Assembly: GCA_001940895.1 (NCBI GenBank)
Contig: MSGY01000011.1
Coordinates: forward strand, 78,942-142,941
Reading direction: 5' to 3'
Length of the DNA: 64,000 nucleotides
DNA from: Christensenellaceae bacterium Phil10
GTDB taxonomy: Bacteria; Bacillota; Clostridia; Christensenellales; CAG-917
The notes beneath the pieces were generated by a model. It was not told the DNA's origin, did no database searches, and worked only from the letters and a program-made list of their open reading frames with translations. How positions within the stretch are numbered: position 1 is the first letter of the stretch; every line of letters begins with the position of its first letter. This document shows positions 17,347 through 54,976 of this stretch, one piece after another. Made by a program: the position numbers and the translations under genes.

Positions 17347-17832
17347 TTATTCAAAGCGAACGGCAAGACTTGCCTTCGCAATTTCTTTTCTGTCGAGAAC
17401 GAACGTGCTGCCGACGGTTTTTCCGGTTTTTATATCCGTAAGTTCCAGCGTAATCGAGTCGTTGTCGTAACCTTTAAGAACGCCCGTGATTTTTTTGTTT
17501 CCGTCAATTTTTTTGAAAAGGGAAATTTCAAGTTCTTTCCCCGCTCTTCTTCTGAAATCGTCGTCCGTTTTAAGCGGCCAGTCGAGCCCCATCGACGATA
17601 CTTCGAGATTGTACGATTTGTCGCCGAAAGGATTGATTTCGTCAAACAGAGCGTCGACGGCGTTATGCACTTTTTCGCAATCGTCAAGTCCCATGTCGCC
17701 GTCGCGGTATATTACGACCGTGACGGTATCCGTTCCGTACCGCACGCTCGTTTTAACGTCGACGAGTTCGTATCCTTCGCCCTCGACGACGGGTTTGATT
17801 TTTTCTTTGATTTTCAGAATATCTTCTTTCAT
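17347..17832 (-). CDS. rimP: Ribosome maturation factor RimP
   Basis: Trimmed to ATG 17832 (MKEDILKIKEKIKPVVEGEGYELVDV...). 161 aa, immediately upstream of nusA. Confidence 0.85.
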   Translation of the reverse strand: MKEDILKIKEKIKPVVEGEGYELVDVKTSVRYGTDTVTVVIYRDGDMGLDDCEKVHNAVDALFDEINPFGDKSYNLEVSSMGLDWPLKTDDDFRRRAGKELEISLFKKIDGNKKITGVLKGYDNDSITLELTDIKTGKTVGSTFVLDRKEIAKASLAVRFE

Positions 17833-17951
17833 ATTGCACCCTTTATACGAACAAGAGCGAGCCGTCGGGCTCACTCTCTTCATTCAATCAAGCAAACATA
17901 TAATAGCATATATATTTATATTATGCAATTGTTTTTCGGTCTTTTTTAAGT

Positions 17952-19667
17952 TTATTTTAGTTTTTCGGCAAGTATAAGGAACAGTTTTGCCGTTGCGATA
18001 GCGTCGAAGTCGGCGTTATGGGCGCATTCGAGGTCGATGCCGAAATACTTTGAAAGGTTCTGGAGATTATAACTCGGCAATCTGTATTGATTCTTCGCAA
18101 TCACACGCGTGTCGAGTACGGGATTGTCGAAATTATATCCGCATTTCTTGGCAAGACGTACGAGTATCGGATAATCAAAGCCGAAAGCATTGTGTCCCAC
18201 AAGGGTTGCTCCGCGCGAAAATTTATAAAAATCGGCAACGATTTCCTTAAAATCGGGCGCGTTTTCGACGTCTTTGTCGTATAATCCGTGAATTGCGCTC
18301 GTGTCCTCAGGAATATGACAGCCGGGGTTAACGAGAGTACTGAAAGTTTCCACAATTTTTCCGTCGACGATTTTATAACTTCCAATTTGCACGATTTTGC
18401 AACGTCCTATGTCGAGTCCGGTGGTTTCGAGGTCGAAAACCACAAAGGTTTTCCCTTTGAGATAAGGCGCGACTTCTTTTTTGCCGTCCATCAGTTCGTC
18501 CATGCCGCATTGCGACTCCTCGAAATATTTTTCGGGATGAACGAGATAGTAATTTTTGCTGACGGGCTTTGCGGGAAGTTCGGTTTTTATCGTCGAATAG
18601 TCTACGTCGGCAAGCCACATTTTGTCCGCGAGAATCTGCCTGATTCCGTTTCTCTCTCCCAGTTTTCCCGAAATCACGACGTCCGCTCCCTCTCTTAACG
18701 ACAGGTCGAGCGCGTTTACGTTCGTATCCTTCGCAAAATACACGACGGCCAGTTTTCCCGTAGTATCGTCGATAAAAAAGGAATACATCGGAAGCTTTTC
18801 GTCCGTCGTGTTTTTTTTGAATCTTCCGCCCGTAGGAAGATTAAGTCCGAAATTTTTGTTTTTGTATTCGCGCTTTTCAAGCCCCGCGACTTTGCCGCAT
18901 ACCGTTGCGGTTTCCAACGTGTCCTTAATATCGCCGATATACATAGGCAATACGTTCATATAGGCTTTTCCGACGAGGTTTTCAACAGGGGTTGCTTTGA
19001 TTTGCCGCACTTGTTCGTACAGAACAACGGTATCCTGAGAAGGGTCTATAAGGTCGGTAAAGACGTGGTTTCCGTCCTCTTTTACGGTGCCGTCGTCGTT
19101 AACGGAAATATTACAATTCAAGCCGGCGTTTTCGACTGTTTTCAAACTTTTTTCGCTAATTTTCCGTTTTTCTTCTTCCGTAATGTATTTTTCGATTATC
19201 TCATAGTTGACGTTTTCAACGAAATTGTCGTTAAGATATGAAACGACGTTGTCGCGGACGTCTTCGGTGTTCAATAACGAAAAATACGCTTTCTGCGCTT
19301 TAATCCTTACGTCGATTACGTATTCGTCCACGCGCACCGATACGTCCTCGGGTTTTATTGCCTGCGCGGCAACTCCGACGTATTTCGTTATCGCCTGCAT
19401 AAGCCGGACTCTCACCGTCTCCTCGTCCGCGTGAACCTTTATGTATTTTACGGAAAAAGTGATTTCGTCGGGAAGAAGAGGAACGATTGTATTTACGATA
19501 TCCTCTTTTACGGCGTCGGACAAAATGCCGCCGTCGACGGCCTGAGCCGTAGCCAGAAAATATATAAGCAGCTTATTTTCGCTTCGGCTGTATTCGGCGC
19601 GGACGAACCTGACGAAAGGATATTTATTTTCCGATTTAAGACGGAAAGTCTCTTCAAACTTTTTCAT
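17952..19667 (-). CDS. PolC-like N-terminal/OB-fold/DEDDh 3'-5' exonuclease protein lacking PHP and polymerase core
   Basis: 571 aa. Exo motifs FVVFDLETTGLD (I), LVGHNAFGFDYPIL (II) and ECAHNADFDAIATA (III, DEDDh) closely resemble the PolC proofreading insert. Residues about 255-355 look like an OB fold. Occupies the polC slot between ispG and rimP. Confidence 0.7.
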   Translation of the reverse strand: MKKFEETFRLKSENKYPFVRFVRAEYSRSENKLLIYFLATAQAVDGGILSDAVKEDIVNTIVPLLPDEITFSVKYIKVHADEETVRVRLMQAITKYVGVAAQAIKPEDVSVRVDEYVIDVRIKAQKAYFSLLNTEDVRDNVVSYLNDNFVENVNYEIIEKYITEEEKRKISEKSLKTVENAGLNCNISVNDDGTVKEDGNHVFTDLIDPSQDTVVLYEQVRQIKATPVENLVGKAYMNVLPMYIGDIKDTLETATVCGKVAGLEKREYKNKNFGLNLPTGGRFKKNTTDEKLPMYSFFIDDTTGKLAVVYFAKDTNVNALDLSLREGADVVISGKLGERNGIRQILADKMWLADVDYSTIKTELPAKPVSKNYYLVHPEKYFEESQCGMDELMDGKKEVAPYLKGKTFVVFDLETTGLDIGRCKIVQIGSYKIVDGKIVETFSTLVNPGCHIPEDTSAIHGLYDKDVENAPDFKEIVADFYKFSRGATLVGHNAFGFDYPILVRLAKKCGYNFDNPVLDTRVIAKNQYRLPSYNLQNLSKYFGIDLECAHNADFDAIATAKLFLILAEKLK

Positions 19668-20697
19668 TTTTTCCCTTATATTTCTCGATTAAAGATTTTA
19701 TTTCGTTCGATATTTCATTATTTTCAACGGTTTTTGTTATTTTACCATTTTCGAAAACAGCCGATTTTCCTATACCGCCCGCCACTCCGAAATCGGCGTT
19801 TTCGCTTTCGCCGATTCCGTTAACGACGCATCCCATCACCGCTACTTTAAGCCCCTTCGTACCTGCAAGCAGTTTTTCGGCCTCCTCTGCGATTTTACTT
19901 ACGGGAATAGCGGTCCGCGCACAGGTCGGACAGGATACTACCTCGCTGTCGTCGTTAAGCCCGAGGGATTTTAAAAGCATTCGCCCCGCGCGAACTTCTT
20001 CGACGGGGTCGGCCGTCAGCGAAATTCTTATCGTATCGCCAATTCCGTCAAGAAGAAGGGGCGCAATCCCCGCAACGTTTTTTATAAGACCTCTTTGATA
20101 CGTTCCGGCCTCGGTAACGCCTATGTGTAAAGGATAGTCGAATTTTGCCGAAAACGCTCGGGCGGCGGCAACGCTTGTCCTTACGTCCGACGATTTAAGG
20201 GAAACGACGATTTCGTAAAAACCCGCATTCTCAAGCATTGCGATATGTCTCTCCGCGCTTATCGTCAACGCTTCGGCGACCGGCTTTTGCTTCAGGTCTT
20301 TTTCGATACTGCCCGCATTAACGCCTATTCTGACGGGAACGCCCCTTTCCTTCAGAAAATCGGCAAGATATTTTACCTTGCCTCGGTCTCCGATATTTCC
20401 GGGATTGATTCTGACCTTGTCCGCTCCGTTTTCGACGGCGGCGACGGCAAGCTTATAATCGTACTGAATATCCGCAACTACGGGAATATGCGTGCGTTTT
20501 TTGATTTCCGACAGGGCTTTCGCGGTTTCCTTTCCGTTTACCGCAACGCGCACGATATCGCACCCTGCGTTTTCGAGAGCGATAATCTGTCCTACCGTGG
20601 CGTCGACGTCGGCAGTGTCAGTATTACACATCGATTGTACCGTTATCGGTGCGTCTCCGCCTATAAAAATATTTCCGACTTTTATTTTGCGCGTCAT
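19654..20697 (-). CDS. ispG: 4-hydroxy-3-methylbut-2-en-1-yl diphosphate synthase (flavodoxin)
   Basis: 347 aa. IGGDAPITVQSMCNT..., C-terminal Fe-S Cys (SCPTCART, GCVVNGIGE). Confidence 0.92.
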   Translation of the reverse strand: MTRKIKVGNIFIGGDAPITVQSMCNTDTADVDATVGQIIALENAGCDIVRVAVNGKETAKALSEIKKRTHIPVVADIQYDYKLAVAAVENGADKVRINPGNIGDRGKVKYLADFLKERGVPVRIGVNAGSIEKDLKQKPVAEALTISAERHIAMLENAGFYEIVVSLKSSDVRTSVAAARAFSAKFDYPLHIGVTEAGTYQRGLIKNVAGIAPLLLDGIGDTIRISLTADPVEEVRAGRMLLKSLGLNDDSEVVSCPTCARTAIPVSKIAEEAEKLLAGTKGLKVAVMGCVVNGIGESENADFGVAGGIGKSAVFENGKITKTVENNEISNEIKSLIEKYKGKNEKV

Positions 20698-31515: not shown

Positions 31516-31990
31516 AAAAAACCCTTATATCCTCCTCGGCAACGCCCGAAAAAGCCGCCGCGCTTTTCCTGACTTCGTCAATATCAATACTATTCGACTT
31601 GTCCGCAGTAAATGCTTCCCGCGCCAAAATTACGTTAACGTAGTCAATTTCTTTCTCGTTTCCCGTTTTTCCGACAAAACGAACGGTGGCTTTCACGCCT
31701 GTAGCCGACAGATAATCCGCAAGAAGTTTCTCCCTCGTTTTAAAAGAATTTGCGGATATCCCGTCTAAGAAATCCTCGTCGGAAGAATATTCGGTATAAT
31801 CCGCCCCGATAACGTTTTTTATATCGAAATCCGAAGAAAGCAATTTCGGAAGAGGCGATATAACGACGTAAAGTATTATCAACGAAAGAATTCCCTTTAC
31901 GTATTTTTTGGTCTGCCCTTCGGGCAGCATCAGCGAAAGCAAAGAGCCCGCGGCTATAATACCCGAAATCGCAAGCACGTAAGTTCTCAT
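31502..31990 (-). CDS. spoIIIAF: Stage III sporulation protein AF
   Basis: 162 aa with two N-terminal TM helices (LLSLMLPEG.. motif). Assignment rests mainly on operon position. Confidence 0.8.
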   Translation of the reverse strand: MRTYVLAISGIIAAGSLLSLMLPEGQTKKYVKGILSLIILYVVISPLPKLLSSDFDIKNVIGADYTEYSSDEDFLDGISANSFKTREKLLADYLSATGVKATVRFVGKTGNEKEIDYVNVILAREAFTADKSNSIDIDEVRKSAAAFSGVAEEDIRVFYERR

Positions 31991-33186
31991 CCCGCCACCC
32001 CCGTATTACAAGACAGACTCACCGTAAGCACCAAAGCGAAAAACGCAAAAGCGGCGGCAAGTACGGAAGATACGAGAAGCTTACAGCTTTTTGCAATTTT
32101 GTTAAGTATTTCCGACGTATTGTCGGCGCCGAGAGGTTCCACCGCCGCGGCCGCGAAACGCAATAAAACAATAAACGCCGCCATTTTTAGGACGGGAAAA
32201 AGAACGACGGACGCAAGAATAATCAACCCGGTAACTCCGAGAGCGTTTTTAATCAGCACGCAACTTGCCATCACGACGTCGAAACCGTCCGAAAGATATC
32301 CTCCGACGACGGGTACGTAACTTTTAAGAGCGAATCTCGCGGCGTTGACGCCGACTCCGTCAACCGTTCGCCCCAATATTCCTGCGACGGTAAGATAAAA
32401 AACGAACGCCGAAAACGACAGTTTAAGCACCCATTCTCCGATTTTTCTGAAAAAATCCGAAAGTTTACTCAGTTTTACCGACGGAGAAACGTTTCCGACG
32501 GCGCCTATTACGACAGACCCCGTAAAGCACGGCAGGACCACGCTTTTCACGATTTTTACGGCGCCGGCAGAGGCTACGGCCGCAAGAGGTTTTATCAATC
32601 CCGCTCCGCTCGTTCCCCCCAAAGCAGTCATTAAAGTTATAAGAACGGGAAAAAGCGCGTTTGTGAGTTTTTCCACCCTGCCCACGGTTTCGACGGTCAG
32701 CGTAAACATTTTCGCCGTCTCGGAAATAACCACGGTAAGCACGGCGGCGTAACAGGCAAAACCCACGATTTCCGAAGTCGAATCGTTGAGAAAACCCGAA
32801 TTGAGTCCTTTCAGCATGCCCGATAGCACGGACACGACCATAACGGTAAGAACGGCGGGAATAAAATCCGTAAACCCGCCCGCAATTCCTTTGAACAACG
32901 CCGCGAGAAAATCCGTAAAAGACAATCCGACGTCGCCCGAAACGAGTTTTTTCAGCATAGTCTTTACGTCGTCGGAAATAAGTCCTTTCTCGTCTTCGGA
33001 CAGGCTGTCGAAATATTCTTCGAGTTTTGAAGTATCCAGTTTGTCAAGCGTATCGTCCACGCTTTCGGACAGTTCTTCCTCTATATCGCTTTCAGCCGCA
33101 TAAGCTACGTTTTTTACATCGATATGATTAAAAAAAGCAAAAAAAACTGCCGAAACCAGAATAAATAAAAATATTTTTGTTTTCAT
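31987..33186 (-). CDS. spoIIIAE: Stage III sporulation protein AE
   Basis: 399 aa with a signal peptide and a polytopic membrane domain. Operon position fits. Confidence 0.88.
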   Translation of the reverse strand: MKTKIFLFILVSAVFFAFFNHIDVKNVAYAAESDIEEELSESVDDTLDKLDTSKLEEYFDSLSEDEKGLISDDVKTMLKKLVSGDVGLSFTDFLAALFKGIAGGFTDFIPAVLTVMVVSVLSGMLKGLNSGFLNDSTSEIVGFACYAAVLTVVISETAKMFTLTVETVGRVEKLTNALFPVLITLMTALGGTSGAGLIKPLAAVASAGAVKIVKSVVLPCFTGSVVIGAVGNVSPSVKLSKLSDFFRKIGEWVLKLSFSAFVFYLTVAGILGRTVDGVGVNAARFALKSYVPVVGGYLSDGFDVVMASCVLIKNALGVTGLIILASVVLFPVLKMAAFIVLLRFAAAAVEPLGADNTSEILNKIAKSCKLLVSSVLAAAFAFFALVLTVSLSCNTGVAG

Positions 33187-38363: not shown

Positions 38364-38447
38364 TGGTGCGGTCGATGGGACTTGAACCCATACGGTCTTC
38401 CCATACGCCCCTCAAACGTACGCGTCTGCCTGTTCCGCCACGACCGC
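38364..38447 (-). tRNA. tRNA-Leu (anticodon GAG), type II with long variable arm, CCA encoded
   Basis: Folded by hand. Acceptor GCGGTCG/CGACCGC. D arm GCG-GAACAGGCAGA-CGC. Anticodon stem TACGT/GCGTA with loop TTGAGGG. 12-nt variable arm. T arm ATGGG-TTCAAGT-CCCAT. A73 then CCA. Confidence 0.9.
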
Positions 38448-45966: not shown

Positions 45967-47262
45967 TTATTTGATTTTACCGAGTCGTTTCCGTCGCTCG
46001 CGCACGGTTTTTTCATAGCCGTGCTCCGACGGAACGTAAAACTTTTCGTCCTTTAACGAATCGGGAAGATATTGCTGTTCGACGTAGCCGCCGTAGTCGT
46101 GCGGATACTTATAGCCGCTTATTTTATCCTGCTTGTAGTTGACGTCGCGCAGGTACACGGGAACGGCTTCGTTTTTTACCGCCCTCACCGCTTCCTCCGC
46201 TTTGTCCTTCGCGATGACGACGCTGTTGGACTTTTCGCTTTCGCAGACGCATATTATCGCTTCGGCAAGAGGCAGTTTACCCTCGGGCATTCCTATCTTT
46301 TCATAAGCGACGAGCGCGTTGGTCGCAACGACAAGCGCGTCCGGATTCGCCATTCCGACATCCTCGGCGGAGTGCGCTATCGTGCGTCTGAAAATAATAA
46401 GAGGGTCGCAACCGGCGTCGATAAGGCGCATTGCCCAGTATAACGCGGCGTCGCTGTCGCTTCCTCTGAGCGATTTGCAAAAGGCCGACAACATATCGTA
46501 ATAATCGTCCTCGTTTACCGAAAGAACTCTTTTCTGAATACTTTGTGCGGCGATTTCTTTATTTATGCGGATAACTCCGTCTTTATCGGGCGCGGTCGTT
46601 ACCGCGGCGAGTTCAAGCGCGTTGAGCGCCGTCCTCAAATCGCCCGAAGCGGCCAGCGCGAGATATCCGAGCGCGTCGTCGTCCGCCGAAACGTTCATAT
46701 CGAGAAGTCCGCGTTTATCGTTAAGAGCCCTGTTGAGAGCTTTCGTAATATCGGCGTCGGTAAGAGGTCTGAATTCGAAAAGTCTGCATCTCGATACTAT
46801 CGCCTTCGTCATGGAAACGTACGGATTCTCCGTCGTACTGCCGATAAAAACTATATATCCCTGTTCGATGGCGGCAAGCACGCTGTCGGACTGAGCCTTG
46901 TTCCAGCGGTGACATTCGTCCAAAAGCAGATAGGTTTTTTTGCCGTACATCAGAAGTCGGTTTTTCGCTTCCTCGATTACTCTTTTTGCGTCGGCAACGC
47001 CGCTTGAAACGGCGTTCAGTATTTCGAAGTGGCTGTTTGTGTTTTTTGCGATAATATTTGCAAGCGTAGTCTTACCTGTACCCGGAGGTCCGTAAAATAT
47101 GCAACTTCCGAGTCTGTCTGCGGAAATTGCGCGCCTTAAAAGCGAGCCTTCTCCCACGATATGACTCTGTCCGATAAACTCGTTGAGAGCAGCCGGCCGC
47201 ATTCTCTCCGCAAGAGGTTTCAATGCGTCGTTGTTTTGGTTTGCGTAATCGAATAAATCCAT
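45967..47262 (-). CDS. rarA: Replication-associated recombination protein A (AAA+ ATPase)
   Basis: Trimmed to ATG 47262 (MDLFDYANQNN...PLAERMRP). Walker A GPPGTGKTT, Walker B LLDECHR, C-terminal MgsA domain. Confidence 0.9.
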   Translation of the reverse strand: MDLFDYANQNNDALKPLAERMRPAALNEFIGQSHIVGEGSLLRRAISADRLGSCIFYGPPGTGKTTLANIIAKNTNSHFEILNAVSSGVADAKRVIEEAKNRLLMYGKKTYLLLDECHRWNKAQSDSVLAAIEQGYIVFIGSTTENPYVSMTKAIVSRCRLFEFRPLTDADITKALNRALNDKRGLLDMNVSADDDALGYLALAASGDLRTALNALELAAVTTAPDKDGVIRINKEIAAQSIQKRVLSVNEDDYYDMLSAFCKSLRGSDSDAALYWAMRLIDAGCDPLIIFRRTIAHSAEDVGMANPDALVVATNALVAYEKIGMPEGKLPLAEAIICVCESEKSNSVVIAKDKAEEAVRAVKNEAVPVYLRDVNYKQDKISGYKYPHDYGGYVEQQYLPDSLKDEKFYVPSEHGYEKTVRERRKRLGKIK

Positions 47263-47304
47263 ACTTCGGATTTTATCACAACGAAACGCGAAATGCAAAC
47301 CGTT

Positions 47305-50300
47305 TCAGGGATATATTACGTCGAATATCCGATTATCGCCCTCTCTTATGGGTATTGCCGAAACGCTTTTCAGTTCCACACCGTTTTCAACGAGCATGAA
47401 TTCGCCGCCTCGTCTGAATCTGAAAATATATCTGCTTTTTCCGTCGTCGTATTTTACCGTGTACTCGTCCATTCCCGCGGGCGGACGCGGATTGACGCAT
47501 ATCGAACGGTTTTCTATTCTGACCCCCAGAAAACCTTCTATTACGGTTTTGTAGCACCAACTCGCGCTGCCCGTGTACCAAGTCCAGCCAGCGCGCCCCT
47601 CGTGCAACGAATTCGAATAAACGTCGGCGGCAAGCACATACGGTTCGCCTTTGTATTTTAGGACCGTTTTTTCGTCGCGGCATTTTTCGACGGGATTTAT
47701 CGCGTTAAAAATCTCGTACGCTTCGTCGGTTCTTCCTTCGTTAATCAATGCAAGAATAAACCACATAGCGCCGTGGGTATACTGCCCTCCGTTTTCTCTG
47801 ATTCCTTCGGGATATAAACTGATATAACCGTAATATCCGTTTTCGTCAAAAGGCGGCGCAAGTAACAAAAACATTCCGTTTTTTCTGTCAAACAGGTCTT
47901 TTTTTGCAGTAGTTAGTCCGTCGTTAACCTTTTTTTTGTCGTTTATACCTGCCAGAGAAGCCCACGCCTCGGATATCGCGTCGATTTTCATCGCTTTGGA
48001 TTTTCCTCCGCCCAACCACTCGCCCGAAGCAGTGACAAGCCTTTTGAAGCGACCGTTTTCGAAAGTTTTGAGAACGGCGGACGATAATTTTTCCGCCCTG
48101 TCCGCCCAAAAAAGTTTTTCCTTACCCTCGTAAAACGTGCTCATCCTTTTAAGCACGGCAATATAAAATTCGGTAAGCCATACGCTTTCGCCCGCCGTTT
48201 CGGTGCCTACGGCGTTCAGAGCGTCGTTCCAGTCGCCCGAACCTATTTTAAGAAGTCCGTTTTCGCCGATACGGTATGCGTTATTCACAATTCTTTCGAG
48301 ATGAGCAAGAAGCGAATCGCGTTTTCCCTCGTCGGGAATTTCGAAACGGTCCTCCTCGTTGACGGAAAGCCGCGCCGACAGCAGATAAGGCACGGATTCC
48401 CGAAGAATACCGTCGTCGCCGGTAACCGATACGTATTCCGTCACCGCATAAGGCAAAAACAGCCCGTCGTCCGATATGCGGGTGCGCACGCCGTGTCTTT
48501 CTCCGTGCCACCAATGCATAACGTCGCCCTCGTAATATACGTGAGACGCAAGGTCCAGCAATAGTTTTCTCGTCCGCGCGGGGTCGATATAAACGAAAGT
48601 CAGCAAATCCTGCGCCATATCTCTGAAACCCGTTGCGCCGCCCGCCTGATACAGTGAAGTTTTGCCGTTTATTCTCGACGAAACGGTCTGATAAGCAAGA
48701 CAGTGATTGAAAAGAACGTCCATATCGCGGTTTCCGGTTTCGATTGAAAAAACGTTCAGTTTTTTGAAATAATCCGTACTTTTGCGTTTTTCGCAAGCCA
48801 TATCGTCCGTTCGCGCGTTTCTCACGCTTTTATAATCTCCGCCGAAAACGAAACGATACGTCTCGCTTTCGCCCGCTTTCAGATTCACGTCGTAATACGC
48901 CGAAAAAGTAGCGTTGTTCATAGAGGCGGAAGGTATTTCCGCCCCTCTCGAACGCGGGAAAAATTTTTCGTCGTATTTTCCCGAAAACGCTTTAAGATAA
49001 GCGCTTACTCCGTTTTTAACGTTAACCGCCTCGCGGATTCCGTCCTCGGTTTTCATAAAAATATAATCGCCGTCTTTACGCGCGCCTAAAACGAGCGCGG
49101 GAACGAAAAAGAGTTTGCGTGAGATATCCTCGGAAGCCGTAACGGTTACTTCGAAAACCTTCGCGCCGCCGTCGCAAATCATATATTCGGACACTTCCGA
49201 AGTAAAACCGCCTCCGCTACCCGAAAACCGGCTTTCTCCCTGACAATGCGAGACGTGCGCCCCCGCTTTCAGGTCGAACGCCGAGGTATCGCCGTCGAAA
49301 AGTAAAATCCTTTCGGAAGGAATATCGGACGTATAATCGTTTCGCCATTCGGTCAGTTTACTTTCCCTCGAATTGCCGTAATAGGTATATCCTCCGCCGC
49401 CGTCCGTAACCACCGTGCCGCCCTTAGTACCGCAGATAACGTTCTGATAAGGCAGAAGAGTGCGCTCGTAAAAAGGCACCACCTCGTACGCGTCGCGCGA
49501 AAATCCGCCCTCTCCCGTTCCGAAAATAATTTCGGGCGGCGCGGCAGGCGTCACTTCGGATATCGACGGATTTTCCGTTTTTTCCTCGGAGAAACTTATC
49601 TTCGAAAAATCGTAAAAACAGATTTCTTCAAGGATTTTTACGGGCGTTTCGTCGTCGAGAAACACGTCCCGTCCCGTAACGCATTTGTCCAGAACTTCGG
49701 CGATTTCTCTTCTTACGGGCGCAAAATATCCGTCCCTGTCGGAGTAAGATACGATAAGACTCACCGCAATTCCCGCAGACAGCCATCTGTCCGAAAGCGT
49801 AAGCGCGCGTTTAAGCGCGTTCTTGTTGCCGTCGTAAACGAATAACAAGGGTTTTCTCGTAAAGTTGTGCGAATAGCGCATAAAAGTTCTGTTATATCTG
49901 CATATTCCGATTATTTTTTCGGCAGAAAAAGGTTCGTATATGAGTTTTGATGTCATAACGAGCGAAATATCGAAAAATCTTTTGTCCGTTATCGCGTTTT
50001 TTACGGCATTTCTTTTCGTTGACAACGCCCTGAAAGAAGATTGTCTTGTCTTGGCCAGTTCGCGGAGAACGCCCTCGCGACTCGTTCCGGCGGTTATATA
50101 AACGTCGATTTCTTTCGTTGAAAAAGCTTTAACATCGATATCCGCCGAAAATATGCACGCCGGGTCGAGCACCGCTCCGAATATTTCTTCGTTTTTTCTT
50201 TTTCCGAATACTCCCGCGGGATTTTTTGCGGTGTGCCCGCGCGAAAGGAAAGAATATCCGTCCGACGAAAAAACGGCGTTACACCCGTCTGCCCGCACGC

Positions 50301-53300
50301 CTAAAAACATTCCTTTATTATTATCTCTTTCCCGCCTTCGCGCGATGAAAACGTCCCCGTCTTTTTCCGTCTCCACGAACATATCCGAGAACACGGGATG
50401 GGCGATTTCGTTTTCGGTATAATTCAGCGCAAGGTCGAAATAAAAAGTTACCCTGTATTTTTTATCGGAATCGCAGTCGTTTTTTACCGAAAGCGTACGC
50501 ACTTCTCCCTCGAAAAAGCACGGGCAGGCAATCCTTTCCGAAAGTCCCGCCGCGCGGTTTTCGTAAGTTATGAAACCGTTTTCGAAAACGGTTGAATAAT
50601 CGCCGTCGGAAAAAACGGGAGCGGCGCACGGAGAAGAGACTTTTCCGTCTTCGTCGGTTACGTAAAAGAACATACCGCAGACAATATTCGGGTCGTTTCT
50701 GAAACGGTTTATCGCAATTCCCGACTTTTTCGAATAGCCGGCGCCGGCGTCGTCGGCAACCACAACGTAATCGGAAGACGACAGCACGTGCATAAGCGGC
50801 TCGGCGCGCATACCCGATACCTTTCTCGATATTCTGCATTCTTCGTGGGCGTCGTATACAAACACGTTCTTGTCGGGACGAAAACCTTTTTTATCGTTTC
50901 TTCTTTCGGACAGAATGATTCTGTCGGCATGCACTTCGGGCGCTTCGGAAAACGCGCGTCTTATCGCGCCGTCGGTAAGATGGTCCGCAATCGCCGCAAG
51001 CGTCATTCCGAGATGGTGCGCCATATATTCGCATACGATGCGCGGCGCGCCCGACAAGTCAAGCGCTTCGTACAGACCGTAACGTCCGTTCATTTCCCAT
51101 CTGTTTTCCAGTTTTTTAAGATTTTTCACGACCTCTTTTTCGGCGTAATCGAGCATCAGAAAAGACGAATAAGGCGATATAACGCATTTCGAAAGTTCGC
51201 TTTTAAGACTCAGATTGTCCAGTCCGAAGGCTTTGTAGGCGAAATTCCTGTTGTCGTCGAGGTCGAAATAACCGCTTTCCGAAATGCCGAACAATCCTTT
51301 GCATTTACGTCTCGTCATAATCTTTACGGCGCTTTTCGAAGTGCTTTTCAGAAGGCCGCCCGCCGGAGTATCGAGAAACAGGTCGGGCATAAGATATTCG
51401 AACGCCGTTCCTCCGAAACTCAGAAGAGTGTTTCCGCCCTCCGACGTAAATTCTCTTGCGAGATTGCACCACGATTCGACGGGAACGCCGAAACAGACCC
51501 CGAGATAGGCAAGAAGCCGCGCTTCGGACACGACGTTATCGTAATGACCCGAAAATCTGTTGCGGGATTTGTCGTATCCGATATAAAAAAGTCCGGCTTT
51601 CTCGTCGAACAACGCCGTAAAATCCACTTCTTCGAGATAACTGTCGACCGCTTCGCCTGTTTTTCCCCCGAAAATTTCGCGCGCCGTAATCAACGCCGTT
51701 ATAAAATTCGCGCTGTCGACGCTGCTGACGTATTCGGGATAAAGCGGTTTCCCCGTTCCGACGTCGTACCAGTTGTAAAGATGTCCGCGATATTTTTCCA
51801 GAGAAAGCGCGGCGGTCACCGTTTCGAAAACTCTGTTTTCCGCTTCTTCTTTCGGGACGATTCCCAGAAGATACGCGGAAATTTCGGCAATCACCGAAAA
51901 TCCGATATTTGTGGGCGAAGTATAATTCACTCTTTCGTTTTTCGGCAATTCGTTGAAATTGTCGGCGATAAGCGTCGTGCGGCTTTCTCTGAAATAGGCG
52001 TACGCTTTTACGGCGTGTCCCATAAGATACTGCCTGATTTCGGGTTTAACCTTCGCGCGTTTTTTCTCATATTTTCCCGCATAAAACGGCTTCCATTTCA
52101 GCAAATTCCTTTTCAGCGCGGTTTTCACGCAGGATACTGAAAACAGAACCGCGTCGGAAACCGCGGCATAAGGCAGAACAGAAAGCGCGAACAGCCGTCG
52201 CACGAAAACGGTCGCGGCGTCTTTGATACATGCGAACGTCCTTTTGTTTACGAACGCGGCGAAAAAATTATCCGCGGCGGATATTACGAAATCAGCGAAA
52301 AACGTTACGGCGGATATTATTGCGAGATTGACGTTCGAAAAAGCCGCGGCAAGCGCGAACAATACGGCGTAAGCGGGTGCCGAAAGTACACTTATCGCGT
52401 TAAAAAACATAATATATGCATAAAAAAACGGGATTTTATCTTTTTTATCGTCGCTTTTTGCAAAATTCAGAAAAGGTAAAAGCTGTATGTCGCCACGGGT
52501 CCAGCGCATTCGGCGCTCCTCGTCGGACGCAAAACTCAACGGCACGCTTTCGTAAACGGAAACGCCCGCTCTGCCCGTTTCGAGAACAGCTCCTTCCAGA
52601 ATATCGTGCGACAGAATCCTCTTTTCGGGAAGTCTGCCGTACAGCTTTCTGACGTAACTTTCAAGCCGGAATATCCCTTTGCCTGTAAAAAGTGCGCGTC
52701 CCGTAACGTCGAAAAACAAGGAAGAATACGAGGGATATTTTTCATAACCGTCCCCTCCGTAAAACAGACGGGAATATAACGATTCGAGGGAAAAAGCGTC
52801 GGTTTTTCCGTCGAAAGCAAGCAGGTCGTATTTTTCGTTCATCGGATGAAGCAACGCGTTGACGGCGTCGAGAACGCTTCCCGGAGCCAGCACGCTGTCG
52901 GCGTCGAGAACGATAAAAAACTCGGGCTTTCCCCATTCTTTTTCGGAAAGATAGCAAAAATTTTCATTATTGCCGTCGTATAAAAATTTCGCATAGTCCT
53001 CGACGGCGCCCCTCTTTCTCTCTCTTCCCGAAAAACCGCCTTCGCCGTTGTCGCTGCGACGTCTCACCGCCACTCTTACGTCCTTTTTCCCGTACGTTTC
53101 TATTGCGGCATAAAGTTTGTCGTCGTCATCGTCGCGCACCTTGTCCGAACCTTTGAAATCCACAAGCAGAGTAAACGTTGCGTTTTTCCCTTTATTGGCG
53201 AGATACGTCTCGTAAAGACGCGCGAGATTTTCTTTCAACGAGTCGGCATTCCCCGCAAAAACGGGCACCACCACGTCGGTTTTTGCGAAATCGGGTATTT

Positions 53301-54576
53301 CCTTATATCCCGTTCTCATCACGGGACGTTTTTTAACGAAATGCGAAAACAGATAATTATTTACCGAATACGCCGCCGGTAAAAAAGCCGCGAACGCGAC
53401 GACTCCCGCGATAATTCCCCTGACGAGTCCTCCCGCAAGCAATCCCGCGGCCGAAGCAAATGCGGCGGCAATCAGAAAATGACCCGAAATATAAAGCGTG
53501 GCTTTATTGACAACGCGGTTTTTACTTATGAGATTCGCATTGTTTTTTACGCTTTTGTTAAGCGCTTTACCATCCGAAAAAAGCAGATTTCCGAAATGCT
53601 CGCCGTCGGAGGCAAGAGAAAGAAGTCGTTTTGCGTATTCGTCCTCTCTTAAATTGACTCTGTCCGAAAGCACGGCGGTCTTTTCGAGATAAAGTTTTTT
53701 AGTGGTCTCGTCCGACGCGTCGAAAACGCCGTCGGCGGAATACACCTTGTAAACGGGCAGGTATTCGTAAAGTTTTTTCGTAAAAGCGTCGGCGTTTATG
53801 AGACTTCCGACAAGCGACGAGGTAAGCAAATCCGTTTCGGCAATCAACGACCCGAATACGAATTCGACGTCGTCGAAAGTTCTTGCGCTTTTATCGAGAT
53901 ATCCGTCGATTTTCGCTTTAAGGCGCATATTATGTTTGCCGATAAAATACAGATAAACGTTGTTTTTTATATATTTTTTCAGTAATTTTTTGGATTTTTC
54001 GGCCGAAAGGCGCATTCTTTCGATATAAACGCATTTATTCGCGCATGCGGCCGTTTTTTCGAGCAGCGCAAATTTCAGCGCGTCGCCGACAGCCGTCGCT
54101 TCTCTGTAAGTCAAAGGATTTACCTCGTTCATTGCCGAAACGGCTTCGATTATTCTGCCTTCGGTAACGTTGCCCGCACCCGTCGCCACGCACGCCCGCA
54201 TAAGAATAAGAACCCTCGGCACGCCGCCCGAATGAGGCAAATCGCCGAAATCGGGCACTCCCTTATCGAAAATCCCCGAAAATACGTAATTGTTATCGTA
54301 AAGCCATTTTTCCGCCTCGTAAAGAGTCTCGCCTTTCACGACTTTTTTCTTTATCATGCGATAGGCTCTTCTTACAGCCTTTTCCGCAGGCGTTATTTCG
54401 ACGCCCTTTCCGAAAGGCTCGGGGGTTGCGAGTTTTTTCGCAAGTTTCGATATTTTCAAAGAAAACTCCTCGTCGGACAAATCCGAAGAAAAATCCTCGT
54501 AAAGTTTTTTTCTGGCGTTTTTAAAGATTTCCGCAAGACAGAAAAGAATTATCAGAACAAACGGTATTATAAGCAT
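47305..54576 (-). CDS. Cyclic beta-1,2-glucan synthase-like multidomain protein (GT84-type glycosyltransferase / (alpha/alpha)6 cyclization-like domain / GH94 phosphorylase-like domain)
   Basis: Start trimmed to ATG 54576, because the rnpB terminator lies inside the longest ORF. TM helices flank a GT domain with DADS (52894-52905) and RWTRGD (52489-52506). YTSPTNIG (51901-51921) marks a glucanase-like barrel. The C-terminal half of about 1,100 aa has GH94 features including DWNDALN (48214-48234). Confidence 0.8.
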   Translation of the reverse strand: MLIIPFVLIILFCLAEIFKNARKKLYEDFSSDLSDEEFSLKISKLAKKLATPEPFGKGVEITPAEKAVRRAYRMIKKKVVKGETLYEAEKWLYDNNYVFSGIFDKGVPDFGDLPHSGGVPRVLILMRACVATGAGNVTEGRIIEAVSAMNEVNPLTYREATAVGDALKFALLEKTAACANKCVYIERMRLSAEKSKKLLKKYIKNNVYLYFIGKHNMRLKAKIDGYLDKSARTFDDVEFVFGSLIAETDLLTSSLVGSLINADAFTKKLYEYLPVYKVYSADGVFDASDETTKKLYLEKTAVLSDRVNLREDEYAKRLLSLASDGEHFGNLLFSDGKALNKSVKNNANLISKNRVVNKATLYISGHFLIAAAFASAAGLLAGGLVRGIIAGVVAFAAFLPAAYSVNNYLFSHFVKKRPVMRTGYKEIPDFAKTDVVVPVFAGNADSLKENLARLYETYLANKGKNATFTLLVDFKGSDKVRDDDDDKLYAAIETYGKKDVRVAVRRRSDNGEGGFSGRERKRGAVEDYAKFLYDGNNENFCYLSEKEWGKPEFFIVLDADSVLAPGSVLDAVNALLHPMNEKYDLLAFDGKTDAFSLESLYSRLFYGGDGYEKYPSYSSLFFDVTGRALFTGKGIFRLESYVRKLYGRLPEKRILSHDILEGAVLETGRAGVSVYESVPLSFASDEERRMRWTRGDIQLLPFLNFAKSDDKKDKIPFFYAYIMFFNAISVLSAPAYAVLFALAAAFSNVNLAIISAVTFFADFVISAADNFFAAFVNKRTFACIKDAATVFVRRLFALSVLPYAAVSDAVLFSVSCVKTALKRNLLKWKPFYAGKYEKKRAKVKPEIRQYLMGHAVKAYAYFRESRTTLIADNFNELPKNERVNYTSPTNIGFSVIAEISAYLLGIVPKEEAENRVFETVTAALSLEKYRGHLYNWYDVGTGKPLYPEYVSSVDSANFITALITAREIFGGKTGEAVDSYLEEVDFTALFDEKAGLFYIGYDKSRNRFSGHYDNVVSEARLLAYLGVCFGVPVESWCNLAREFTSEGGNTLLSFGGTAFEYLMPDLFLDTPAGGLLKSTSKSAVKIMTRRKCKGLFGISESGYFDLDDNRNFAYKAFGLDNLSLKSELSKCVISPYSSFLMLDYAEKEVVKNLKKLENRWEMNGRYGLYEALDLSGAPRIVCEYMAHHLGMTLAAIADHLTDGAIRRAFSEAPEVHADRIILSERRNDKKGFRPDKNVFVYDAHEECRISRKVSGMRAEPLMHVLSSSDYVVVADDAGAGYSKKSGIAINRFRNDPNIVCGMFFYVTDEDGKVSSPCAAPVFSDGDYSTVFENGFITYENRAAGLSERIACPCFFEGEVRTLSVKNDCDSDKKYRVTFYFDLALNYTENEIAHPVFSDMFVETEKDGDVFIARRRERDNNKGMFLGVRADGCNAVFSSDGYSFLSRGHTAKNPAGVFGKRKNEEIFGAVLDPACIFSADIDVKAFSTKEIDVYITAGTSREGVLRELAKTRQSSFRALSTKRNAVKNAITDKRFFDISLVMTSKLIYEPFSAEKIIGICRYNRTFMRYSHNFTRKPLLFVYDGNKNALKRALTLSDRWLSAGIAVSLIVSYSDRDGYFAPVRREIAEVLDKCVTGRDVFLDDETPVKILEEICFYDFSKISFSEEKTENPSISEVTPAAPPEIIFGTGEGGFSRDAYEVVPFYERTLLPYQNVICGTKGGTVVTDGGGGYTYYGNSRESKLTEWRNDYTSDIPSERILLFDGDTSAFDLKAGAHVSHCQGESRFSGSGGGFTSEVSEYMICDGGAKVFEVTVTASEDISRKLFFVPALVLGARKDGDYIFMKTEDGIREAVNVKNGVSAYLKAFSGKYDEKFFPRSRGAEIPSASMNNATFSAYYDVNLKAGESETYRFVFGGDYKSVRNARTDDMACEKRKSTDYFKKLNVFSIETGNRDMDVLFNHCLAYQTVSSRINGKTSLYQAGGATGFRDMAQDLLTFVYIDPARTRKLLLDLASHVYYEGDVMHWWHGERHGVRTRISDDGLFLPYAVTEYVSVTGDDGILRESVPYLLSARLSVNEEDRFEIPDEGKRDSLLAHLERIVNNAYRIGENGLLKIGSGDWNDALNAVGTETAGESVWLTEFYIAVLKRMSTFYEGKEKLFWADRAEKLSSAVLKTFENGRFKRLVTASGEWLGGGKSKAMKIDAISEAWASLAGINDKKKVNDGLTTAKKDLFDRKNGMFLLLAPPFDENGYYGYISLYPEGIRENGGQYTHGAMWFILALINEGRTDEAYEIFNAINPVEKCRDEKTVLKYKGEPYVLAADVYSNSLHEGRAGWTWYTGSASWCYKTVIEGFLGVRIENRSICVNPRPPAGMDEYTVKYDDGKSRYIFRFRRGGEFMLVENGVELKSVSAIPIREGDNRIFDVIYP

Positions 54577-54610
54577 AAAATAATTCTTGCCAGGATTACG
54601 AAGCGTAAAC

Positions 54611-54648
54611 AAAAAAAGAAAGTTACCGGCTCGCGCGCCGATAACTTT
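54611..54648 (-). terminator. Rho-independent terminator of rnpB
   Basis: Minus strand: 12-bp stem AAAGTTATCGGC / GCCGGTAACTTT with one G-U pair, a 6-nt loop, then C-T7. Starts 6 nt after the RNase P RNA 3' end. Confidence 0.75.
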
Positions 54649-54653
54649 CATAT

Positions 54654-54976
54654 GCGAGATTAGTCTGTAAGCCGAGTTCTGTCTTGAACGGTCATCTATC
54701 TAGACGTACCGTTGCCGGCACGTTCAAGCGATTGAGGGGACGGACAGGCAATCCATAGTCCCTTTTCTCTTGCATCGGGTGGGGTTTACATAGCCGTGGG
54801 CGTCGCCGCCCCGCTGGTGAGCTCTTACCTCGCCTTTCCATCCTTACACGGAAAACCGTGCGGTATATCTCTGTTGCACTTTCCCTGAAGTCGCCTTCGC
54901 AGGTATTTCGCCTGCACCCTGCCTTGTGATGCTCGGACTTTCCTCATCTTGCGATGCGACCGTCCGGCTAACTCGC
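54654..54976 (-). ncRNA. rnpB: RNase P RNA (bacterial type A-like, compact)
   Basis: Minus strand carries GAGGAAAGTCCGAGC (P4 5'), GGCAGGGTGC, AGTGCAACAGAGA, GGTAAGAGCTCACC, GTAAACCCCACC, CTAGATAGATGACCG and ACAGAACTCGGCTTA (P4 3'). P1 is GCGAGTTAG / CTAATCTCGC. Ends are +/- a few nt. Confidence 0.9.

Follow-up and report, generated by a model that had tools for sequence, protein, structure and literature searches.

PolC is regarded as the hallmark, essential replicase of the low-GC Firmicutes, and its gene normally adjoins rimP and nusA. The described enzymes, among them those of E. faecium (9QPC), G. kaustophilus (3F2B) and B. subtilis, are proteins of ~1,430 aa in which an N-terminal domain (NTD), an OB fold and a DEDDh exonuclease (Exo), the last inserted in the PHP domain, are combined with the palm, fingers, thumb and HhH parts of the polymerase and with a C-terminal clamp motif. 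Free-standing DEDDh proofreaders are known from other replisomes. The E. coli-type DnaQ, or epsilon, is a protein of ~243 aa that carries the clamp-binding motif QTSMAF beside its exonuclease domain and binds the PHP domain of the polymerase alpha through a C-terminal tail. The mycobacterial DnaQ is a non-canonical proofreader in which a DEDDh exonuclease is joined to a BRCT accessory domain and a C-terminal clamp-binding motif (CBM; Q[Y/L]ALF), and which binds the beta clamp, not DnaE1, as an extra proofreader beside a PHP-proficient DnaE1 (PMC11348249). PolCs without an exonuclease in Clostridia and Negativicutes, and DnaE1 proteins fused to one in Bacteroidetes, indicate that the DnaQ-type module has repeatedly been gained, lost and re-attached (PMC3919608). 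In those cases the polymerase was kept and the exonuclease varies, whereas the gene described here keeps the exonuclease and has lost the polymerase. It lies at 17952..19667 on the minus strand of a 64,000-nucleotide stretch of Christensenellaceae bacterium Phil10 (assembly GCA_001940895.1, contig MSGY01000011.1, positions 78,942 to 142,941; hereafter the window), where it occupies the polC position and encodes a polymerase-less, apparently PolC-derived protein of 571 aa with the order NTD, OB fold, linker and Exo.

The open reading frame (ORF) begins with ATG, ends with TAA at 17952-17954 and comprises 571 codons plus the stop, an assignment supported by its orthologues and conserved position. 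On the same strand it is preceded by ispG (19654..20697, minus), which overlaps its start by 14 nt, and further upstream by rseP, dxr, cdsA, frr, pyrH and tsf; downstream lie rimP, nusA, ylxR, an L7Ae-type gene, infB, rbfA and a gene for a DHH phosphoesterase. This is the same rseP/ispG-X-rimP-nusA-infB slot that holds polC in PolC-bearing species. The original prediction, made from the sequence alone, had placed a 571-aa product between ispG and rimP with no room left for remnants of PHP, palm or fingers, and the coordinates bear out both points. The gap to the longest rimP ORF (178 aa, start at 17883) is 68 nt; because the rimP orthologue at a related locus (L002) is 161 aa long, the true start is probably the ATG at 17832, which gives a gap of ~119 nt. 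Under either start, there is no space for polymerase remnants ahead of rimP. A sigma-70-like site was observed inside this intergenic region (17949-17920, minus), and rimP-nusA-infB may thus have a promoter of its own. Rfam searches returned no leader or riboswitch at the locus.

Residues 406-571 (17955..18452, minus) form a DEDDh 3'-5' exonuclease of the PolC/DnaQ type, assigned through RNase_T, TIGR00573, PRK00448, the PDB entries 2p1j and 9qpc and the family alignment. The three motifs that had been read there by eye are present as FDLETTG (411-417), GHNAFGFD (491-498) and HNADFD (550-555), and across an alignment of 63 family members, residues D412, E414, D498, H550 and D555 show no variation; catalysis is therefore under selection. 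By these sequence criteria the exonuclease is intact, and it is predicted to be catalytically competent. Pfam RNase_T (PF00929) covers residues 409-563 with an E-value of 3.6e-30 and 106 bits against a cut-off of 24, and the top NCBIfam model is that of PolC (PRK00448; 1445 positions), whose positions 419-589 align with residues 402-571. The whole-protein scores for the PolC models NF001688 (144.1 bits, cut-off 873) and TIGR01405 (112.4, cut-off 1043) are below their cut-offs. The dnaq exonuclease-domain model TIGR00573, with 94.5 bits, is above its cut-off of 71.5. Amongst PDB sequences, the closest matches are the exonuclease domain of T. maritima PolC (2p1j), followed by E. faecium PolC (9qpc). 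These results agree with the original reading of a PolC-like exonuclease, and the Pfam search gave no PHP or DNA_pol3_alpha match.

Other identities for this part of the protein were considered and set aside. A canonical E. coli-type epsilon was rejected, as the equivalog model TIGR01406 scores 76.9 against a cut-off of 222.7 and the C-terminal tail that binds the PHP domain of alpha is absent. A DinG-type exonuclease-helicase was likewise rejected: the related model TIGR01407 is the second-best NCBIfam match (129.6 bits, cut-off 547.7), with only Exo aligned, to model positions 1-166 of 889, and the protein has no helicase domain. The protein terminates with Exo, with no residues beyond it, and a split intein was rejected because an intein-sized extension is absent at that point. 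Searches of viral, phage and defence libraries matched no part of the protein other than Exo.

Upstream of Exo, the AlphaFold model built with the family alignment (mean pLDDT, the per-residue confidence, 85.5) shows two further folded regions. The NTD (residues 1-181; 19125..19667, minus), delimited by AlphaFold, Foldseek and hhalign, consists of two tandem alpha/beta subdomains of a type-II-KH-like kind, and was modelled with a pLDDT of ~90 within the full protein and of 83 separately. A charged linker follows (182-222; 19002..19124, minus), which is predicted to be disordered (pLDDT <50 at 182-189 and 193-218). The OB fold (223-355; 18603..19001, minus) is homologous to that of PolC by Pfam tRNA_anti-codon, hhalign and Foldseek. 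In a Foldseek search of the PDB, full-length PolC (9qpc_A) was the top match (E 1.8e-16, 414 aligned columns), and the remaining matches span just the 170-residue exonuclease. With the isolated NTD model as query, the matches were tandem type-II KH domains, from NusA and from a beta-CASP protein of archaea, together with alpha-beta modules of the ring-building or BON type. Pfam tRNA_anti-codon reached 24.1 bits at 293-351 of the window protein, under its cut-off of 27, and was detected in 62 of the 63 aligned members at E <= 1 (best E 2.9e-12). The PHP and DNA_pol3_alpha Pfam domains were found in neither the window protein nor any of the 63 members, and the HhH module was likewise absent.

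The relationship of this N-terminal half to PolC was examined by profile-profile comparison. A B. subtilis PolC sequence served purely as bait; the comparison sequence was the deposited E. faecium PolC (9qpc_A, residues 23-722), and its NTD+OB segment was used to retrieve 49 genuine PolC N-terminal fragments for a PolC profile. Nearly all of these fragments carry PF11490 and most carry PF14480, and the longer ones also include OB, PHP and RNase_T. In hhalign, the family profile and the N-terminal half of E. faecium PolC were co-linear in a single alignment that paired their OB folds and their Exo domains, with 99.9% probability and E 6e-32. Family residues 1-400 matched the PolC NTD+OB profile at 98.4% (E 5e-15, 276 co-linear columns), and the OB folds alone matched at 97.8% (E 7e-13, 94 columns). 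For the NTDs alone, the values were 71% and E 3.7e-5, with a score of 35.9 and co-linearity over 138-174 columns; reversed, 20 column-shuffled and cross-domain controls scored at most 18.1, with probabilities of at most 1.4%. Direct structural comparison of the NTDs is impossible, because no solved structure resolves the NTD of PolC, the 2025 cryo-EM work included (PMC12592400).

Altogether, these comparisons point to a co-linear homology to the NTD-OB...Exo order of PolC, from which the entire PHP domain and all that follows Exo are missing in the family. For the N-terminal half, the homology is real but remote, and it is seen in profile-profile comparison only. NCBIfam searches with residues 1-400, 1-230 and 221-400 gave no PolC match and only weak matches to the RecG-wedge OB, phmmer with residues 1-400 found no PolC among 1.84 billion representatives, and no signal was obtained by hhalign when the NTD was compared with one PolC sequence, as opposed to the PolC profile. 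The original prediction had called this N-terminus PolC-like and had proposed a PolC-type OB fold at about residues 255-355. The OB fold was recovered as a barrel at ~223-355, and the structure prediction returned NTD, OB and Exo as confidently folded domains with PolC as the nearest structure. The broader PolC-like description of residues 1-400 holds for the profile comparisons but was overstated with regard to single-sequence or HMM similarity.

The linker between OB and Exo (356-405; 18453..18602, minus), partly modelled with low confidence, stands in place of a PolC segment of ~95 residues that contains the N-terminal strands of PHP: in the hhalign alignment, the PolC PHP-N segment (RVELHVHSNMS...) is aligned to a gap at the family linker, and the HxH metal-binding motif is absent from the 50 linker residues. 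Two short motifs were recognized within it. One, Y373-x2-[VI]-x-P378-x2-Y381 (YYLVHPEKY in the window protein; 18525..18551, minus), is conserved across the alignment, with Y373 in 59 and P378 in all 63 members. The other, defined by a column profile and a census, is a candidate beta-clamp-binding motif at residues 386-392 (18492..18512, minus), apparently gained by the family. Its majority form at 386-391 is Q-x-[S/N/D]-[L/M/V/I]-[F/L]-[D/E], as in QSNLFD, QTDLFN, QLNLFD or QVDLFS, which fits the bacterial consensus QL[S/D]LF (Dalrymple 2001, cited in PMC11348249). Within the 30 residues before the exonuclease, Qxx[LMIV][FL] was found in 71 of 159 members (45%), and this form or a longer variant in 90 of 159 (57%); the same motif occurs at a rate of 2.7% in shuffled linkers and of ~2% per 30 residues elsewhere in the family proteins. 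In the AlphaFold model the motif lies in a low-confidence stretch (pLDDT 66). The window protein belongs to a subclade with a form one residue longer, Q-x-x-hydrophobic-x-[D/E]-hydrophobic (QCGMDEL).

The family is widespread, with this architecture present in more than 150 protein clusters, of 500-590 aa. The homology search returned 129 clusters (120 listed) of 323-574 aa, nearly all of 500-575 aa with OB and RNase_T, and identities across the listed clusters range from 99% to ~26%. As this search returns matches of up to ~1.7x the query length only, the lack of long matches in it is not evidence; under the same ceiling, a 165-aa Exo bait from E. faecium PolC yielded fragments of at most 287 aa and never full-length PolC. 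HMMER with residues 1-400, which exclude the exonuclease, retrieved 101 proteins from the 1.84 billion representatives, nearly all of 500-590 aa or fragments, and the three long matches were unrelated secreted repeat proteins. Amongst GTDB species representatives there were at least 596 matching stretches; the best 80 of these came from animal and human gut metagenome-assembled genomes (MAGs), with labels that included Christensenella sp., Christensenellaceae, Clostridia bacterium, Ca. Coproplasma, Scatosoma, Onthoplasma and Gallimonas. Members of the cluster of the window protein are labelled Christensenellales or Christensenellaceae bacterium. Current database names are exonuclease domain-containing, RNase H-like, 3'-5' exonuclease or hypothetical protein.

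Relatives also share the short gene at this locus. The motif census, the residue and Pfam alignment and the synteny analysis covered 159 members, 63 members and 83 loci, respectively, the loci being from different genomes. Across the 83 loci the family gene is followed by rimP in 76, nusA in 73 and infB in 64, and has ispG (62) or rseP (30) upstream. The best explanation for these patterns is that the gene descended from the N-terminal half of PolC, with NTD, OB and Exo kept and PHP, the polymerase core and HhH lost, and that, all across a Christensenellales-type clade of gut Clostridia, it occupies the locus at which polC originally lay.

Some of these loci showed variations on the common arrangement. 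In a distant member (L001, 10001..11569), the family gene occupies the usual slot in an orientation opposite to that of its neighbours. Elsewhere, genes were inserted between it and rimP, for a 1110-aa EAL-GGDEF protein in L046 (11454..14783, minus) and for a 1182-aa LRR/Listeria-Bacteroides-repeat protein in L007 (4964..8509, plus). Two MAGs labelled Spirochaetales bacterium (L010) and Lachnospiraceae bacterium (L011) carry the gene in frr-cdsA-rseP-X-rimP-nusA-infB synteny, and these contigs are probably mis-binned or mislabelled.

A polymerase that could work with this protein was sought in the surrounding DNA. The search reached ~84 kb of the genome of the window and ~20 kb per relative. 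No PHP or DNA_pol3_alpha protein is encoded in the window or in the 10 kb beyond either end; one of these extensions contains recJ, relA and pnp, and the other contains mur genes, ftsAZ and sigE/sigG. A single ORF of the window is very large, at 2448 aa, and a Pfam scan identified it as a GH94 enzyme and not a polymerase. Similarly, the 1.37 Mb of DNA that flanks the family gene at the 83 loci yielded no polymerase, its long ORFs being infB, purL, the LRR protein, the EAL-GGDEF protein and antisense shadows of infB. A tblastn search of plasmids gave matches to the exonuclease domain only, and third-codon-position skews were uninformative on a PolC-type replisome.

We consider it reasonably probable that the protein acts as a PolC-derived replicative proofreader in trans, probably tethered to the clamp. 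In this proposal, the protein would be anchored on the beta sliding clamp by the motif in the flexible OB-Exo linker and kept on the template or the replisome by the OB fold and NTD, and its DEDDh domain would excise misincorporated 3' nucleotides for a C-family polymerase encoded elsewhere. Its overall role would be that of an epsilon-like subunit made of PolC parts. The polymerase served would most likely be DnaE1, which all Clostridia possess; a PolC core that has moved to another place in the genome is the less likely partner. DnaE-type polymerases were present in every bacterium examined, clostridial DnaE1 retains a conserved putative epsilon-binding surface, and some Clostridia possess DnaE1 only (PMC3919608). 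Additionally, the PolC exonuclease of B. subtilis is able to proofread for DnaE in trans (PMC12926913). A more far-reaching version, in which the Christensenellales-type clade lost the PolC polymerase, replicates by DnaE1 alone and re-tooled the N-terminal half of PolC as its clamp-tethered epsilon-like proofreader, is put forward more tentatively, as a possibility about which we hold somewhat more doubt than confidence.

Several observations weigh against this interpretation. The partner polymerase was not identified within the DNA covered (~84 kb and the flanks of the relatives). Not one of the 63 members was matched by PF14480 or PF11490, the Pfam models of the PolC NTD, and by itself the NTD evidence, at 71%, is only of moderate strength. 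Clamp binding by the linker motif is something that we infer from a sequence pattern only; the competence of the QCGMDEL variant of the window protein is uncertain, and ~43% of members are without a Q-initiated form, as in a subclade with KVKSVFD. The C-terminal tail with which an E. coli-type epsilon binds the PHP domain of alpha has no counterpart in the family, and the CBM of the mycobacterial DnaQ is dispensable for antimutator function (PMC11348249).

Other explanations of the locus have to be weighed against a trans-acting proofreader. A gene with ~40% of the length of PolC, exactly at the polC position, could be a decaying pseudogene, or a full-length polC that an assembly error or a frameshift artefact makes look short, yet this is effectively refuted by the observations. 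The ORF length, the stop position and the rimP junction are the same in 83 independent assemblies, in which the family ORFs always stop within the contig (open frame of 489-756 aa, or 500-575 aa from the start codon); over 20 public runs, most of them pig-gut metagenomes, contain the window sequence; and contigs as long as 1.17 Mb encode near-identical proteins. With invariant catalytic residues, domains that are all predicted to fold with high confidence, and at most ~119 nt before rimP, the gene conforms to the domain-level architecture, as opposed to a recent truncation, that the original prediction had proposed. A split or subfunctionalised PolC deserves more consideration. Here an Exo-less PolC-type polymerase (PHP-Pol3-HhH, with or without NTD and OB) would be encoded elsewhere and form a two-subunit assembly with the family protein, which retains exactly the PolC modules outside the polymerase core. 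PolCs without the Exo insert do exist (~6%, almost exclusively in Clostridia and Negativicutes; PMC3919608), and gene orientation in the window is strongly biased, with ~44 of ~50 credible genes on one strand, as is typical of PolC-bearing genomes (strand bias of ~78%, versus 58% in genomes without PolC; PMC11040001), a weak indication that comes from one 64-kb window. However, the N-terminal strands of PHP, which in PolC come before the Exo insert, are missing from the linker, so that a simple fission at the Exo/PHP-C boundary does not account for the break. Fission products usually begin adjacent to each other, and a polymerase gene was nearby in 0 of the 83 loci (1.37 Mb of flanks). The search with NTD and OB found no long PolC-like relative among the 1.84 billion representatives, and a clamp motif of its own suggests that the protein is recruited independently. 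We therefore regard a split PolC as unlikely, although a real candidate, and of the two options in the original prediction, a free-standing clamp-associated proofreader and one half of a split PolC, the former is favoured because of the clamp-type motif in the linker and the missing PHP-N strands.

A role outside replication is less likely still, and we consider it improbable. The protein would then be a DNA-repair exonuclease of the ExoX or DinG-exonuclease kind, or else a 3'-5' exonuclease that acts on RNA and binds it through the KH-like NTD and the OB fold. The resemblance of the NTD model to the tandem type-II KH of NusA and to an archaeal beta-CASP RNase is in line with such a role, as are the occurrence of RNases in the RNase_T family, the DinG-related exonuclease as second-best NCBIfam model, and neighbours (rimP-nusA-infB-rbfA-truB) that serve ribosome maturation and transcription. 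The neighbourhood is inherited, however, and not indicative of function, because polC itself adjoins rimP-nusA. Neither is the KH-like fold specific for RNA, because such a fold was also predicted for the NTD of PolC (PMC3919608). The exonuclease matches replicative enzymes best (PolC and TIGR00573 dnaq), and the clamp-type motif points to DNA transactions.

Compared with described systems, the proposed proofreader is closest to PolC in ancestry. It shares with PolC the chromosomal slot, the co-linear NTD, OB and DEDDh Exo and an exonuclease that scores best against PolC models, and differs in having 571 aa in place of ~1,430, in lacking both parts of PHP, the palm, fingers, thumb and HhH and the C-terminal clamp motif of PolC, and in having gained a clamp-type motif in the OB-Exo linker. 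With the E. coli-type epsilon it has in common the free-standing DEDDh proofreading exonuclease and a score above the TIGR00573 cut-off; in contrast to epsilon, it has ~400 extra N-terminal residues and a candidate clamp motif on the N-terminal side of Exo. By analogy, the closest functional precedent would be the mycobacterial DnaQ, with its DEDDh exonuclease, accessory domain and CBM, the last matched here by a candidate. That protein belongs to another phylum, has a BRCT accessory domain and a C-terminal CBM, and has neither PolC ancestry nor an OB fold or NTD.

Other features of the window were also recorded. The 2448-aa ORF (47305..54651, minus) contains glucoamylase-like, GH94 supersandwich and GH94 catalytic domains, which indicate a giant enzyme of the beta-glucan phosphorylase or synthase type. 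Directly upstream of it lies a class-A RNase P RNA (54651..54975, minus; 252 bits), the end of which overlaps the ATG of the GH94 ORF by 1 nt; the GH94 ORF also adjoins a gene for an MgsA/RarA-type AAA+ replication-associated recombination protein (45967..47298, minus). The sole tRNA of the window is a tRNA-Leu(GAG) (38364..38447, minus). The Christensenellales-type host appears to be a spore former, because spoIIIAE is present in the window (31987..33186, minus) and a spoIIGA-type peptidase U4 gene and two sigma factor genes (sigE/sigG-like) lie by ftsA/ftsZ past the window end (L086, 13406..15764).

In the literature searched (Christensenellaceae and PolC, PolC loss, truncated or split PolC), the family is undescribed, and the curated libraries Pfam and NCBIfam hold no model for it. 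It went unnoticed because fragments of this kind are dropped from polymerase surveys; the two large ones on the C family excluded fragments that lack a polymerase active site (PMC3919608 among the sources). The family is a new architectural variant, probably a PolC-derived DnaQ-type replicative proofreader. As a natural protein composed of NTD, OB and exonuclease, it isolates the role of the NTD and OB of PolC. It would also represent a third independent attachment of a DnaQ-type proofreader, which is otherwise placed in PHP or on the N-terminus of DnaE1 and here would be free and carry a clamp motif. PolC inhibitors have reached late clinical development, and the PolC status of Christensenellaceae-type commensals bears on how far such inhibitors spare the microbiome. 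If the PolC polymerase has indeed been lost, a health-associated order of gut Firmicutes would be without the target of PolC-directed antibiotics such as ibezapolstat. An order-level gut clade with only the non-polymerase half at its polC locus would revise the picture of PolC as a hallmark and would show how replicase types interconvert; with the polymerase lost, it would be a living intermediate between PolC+DnaE and DnaE+epsilon replisomes.

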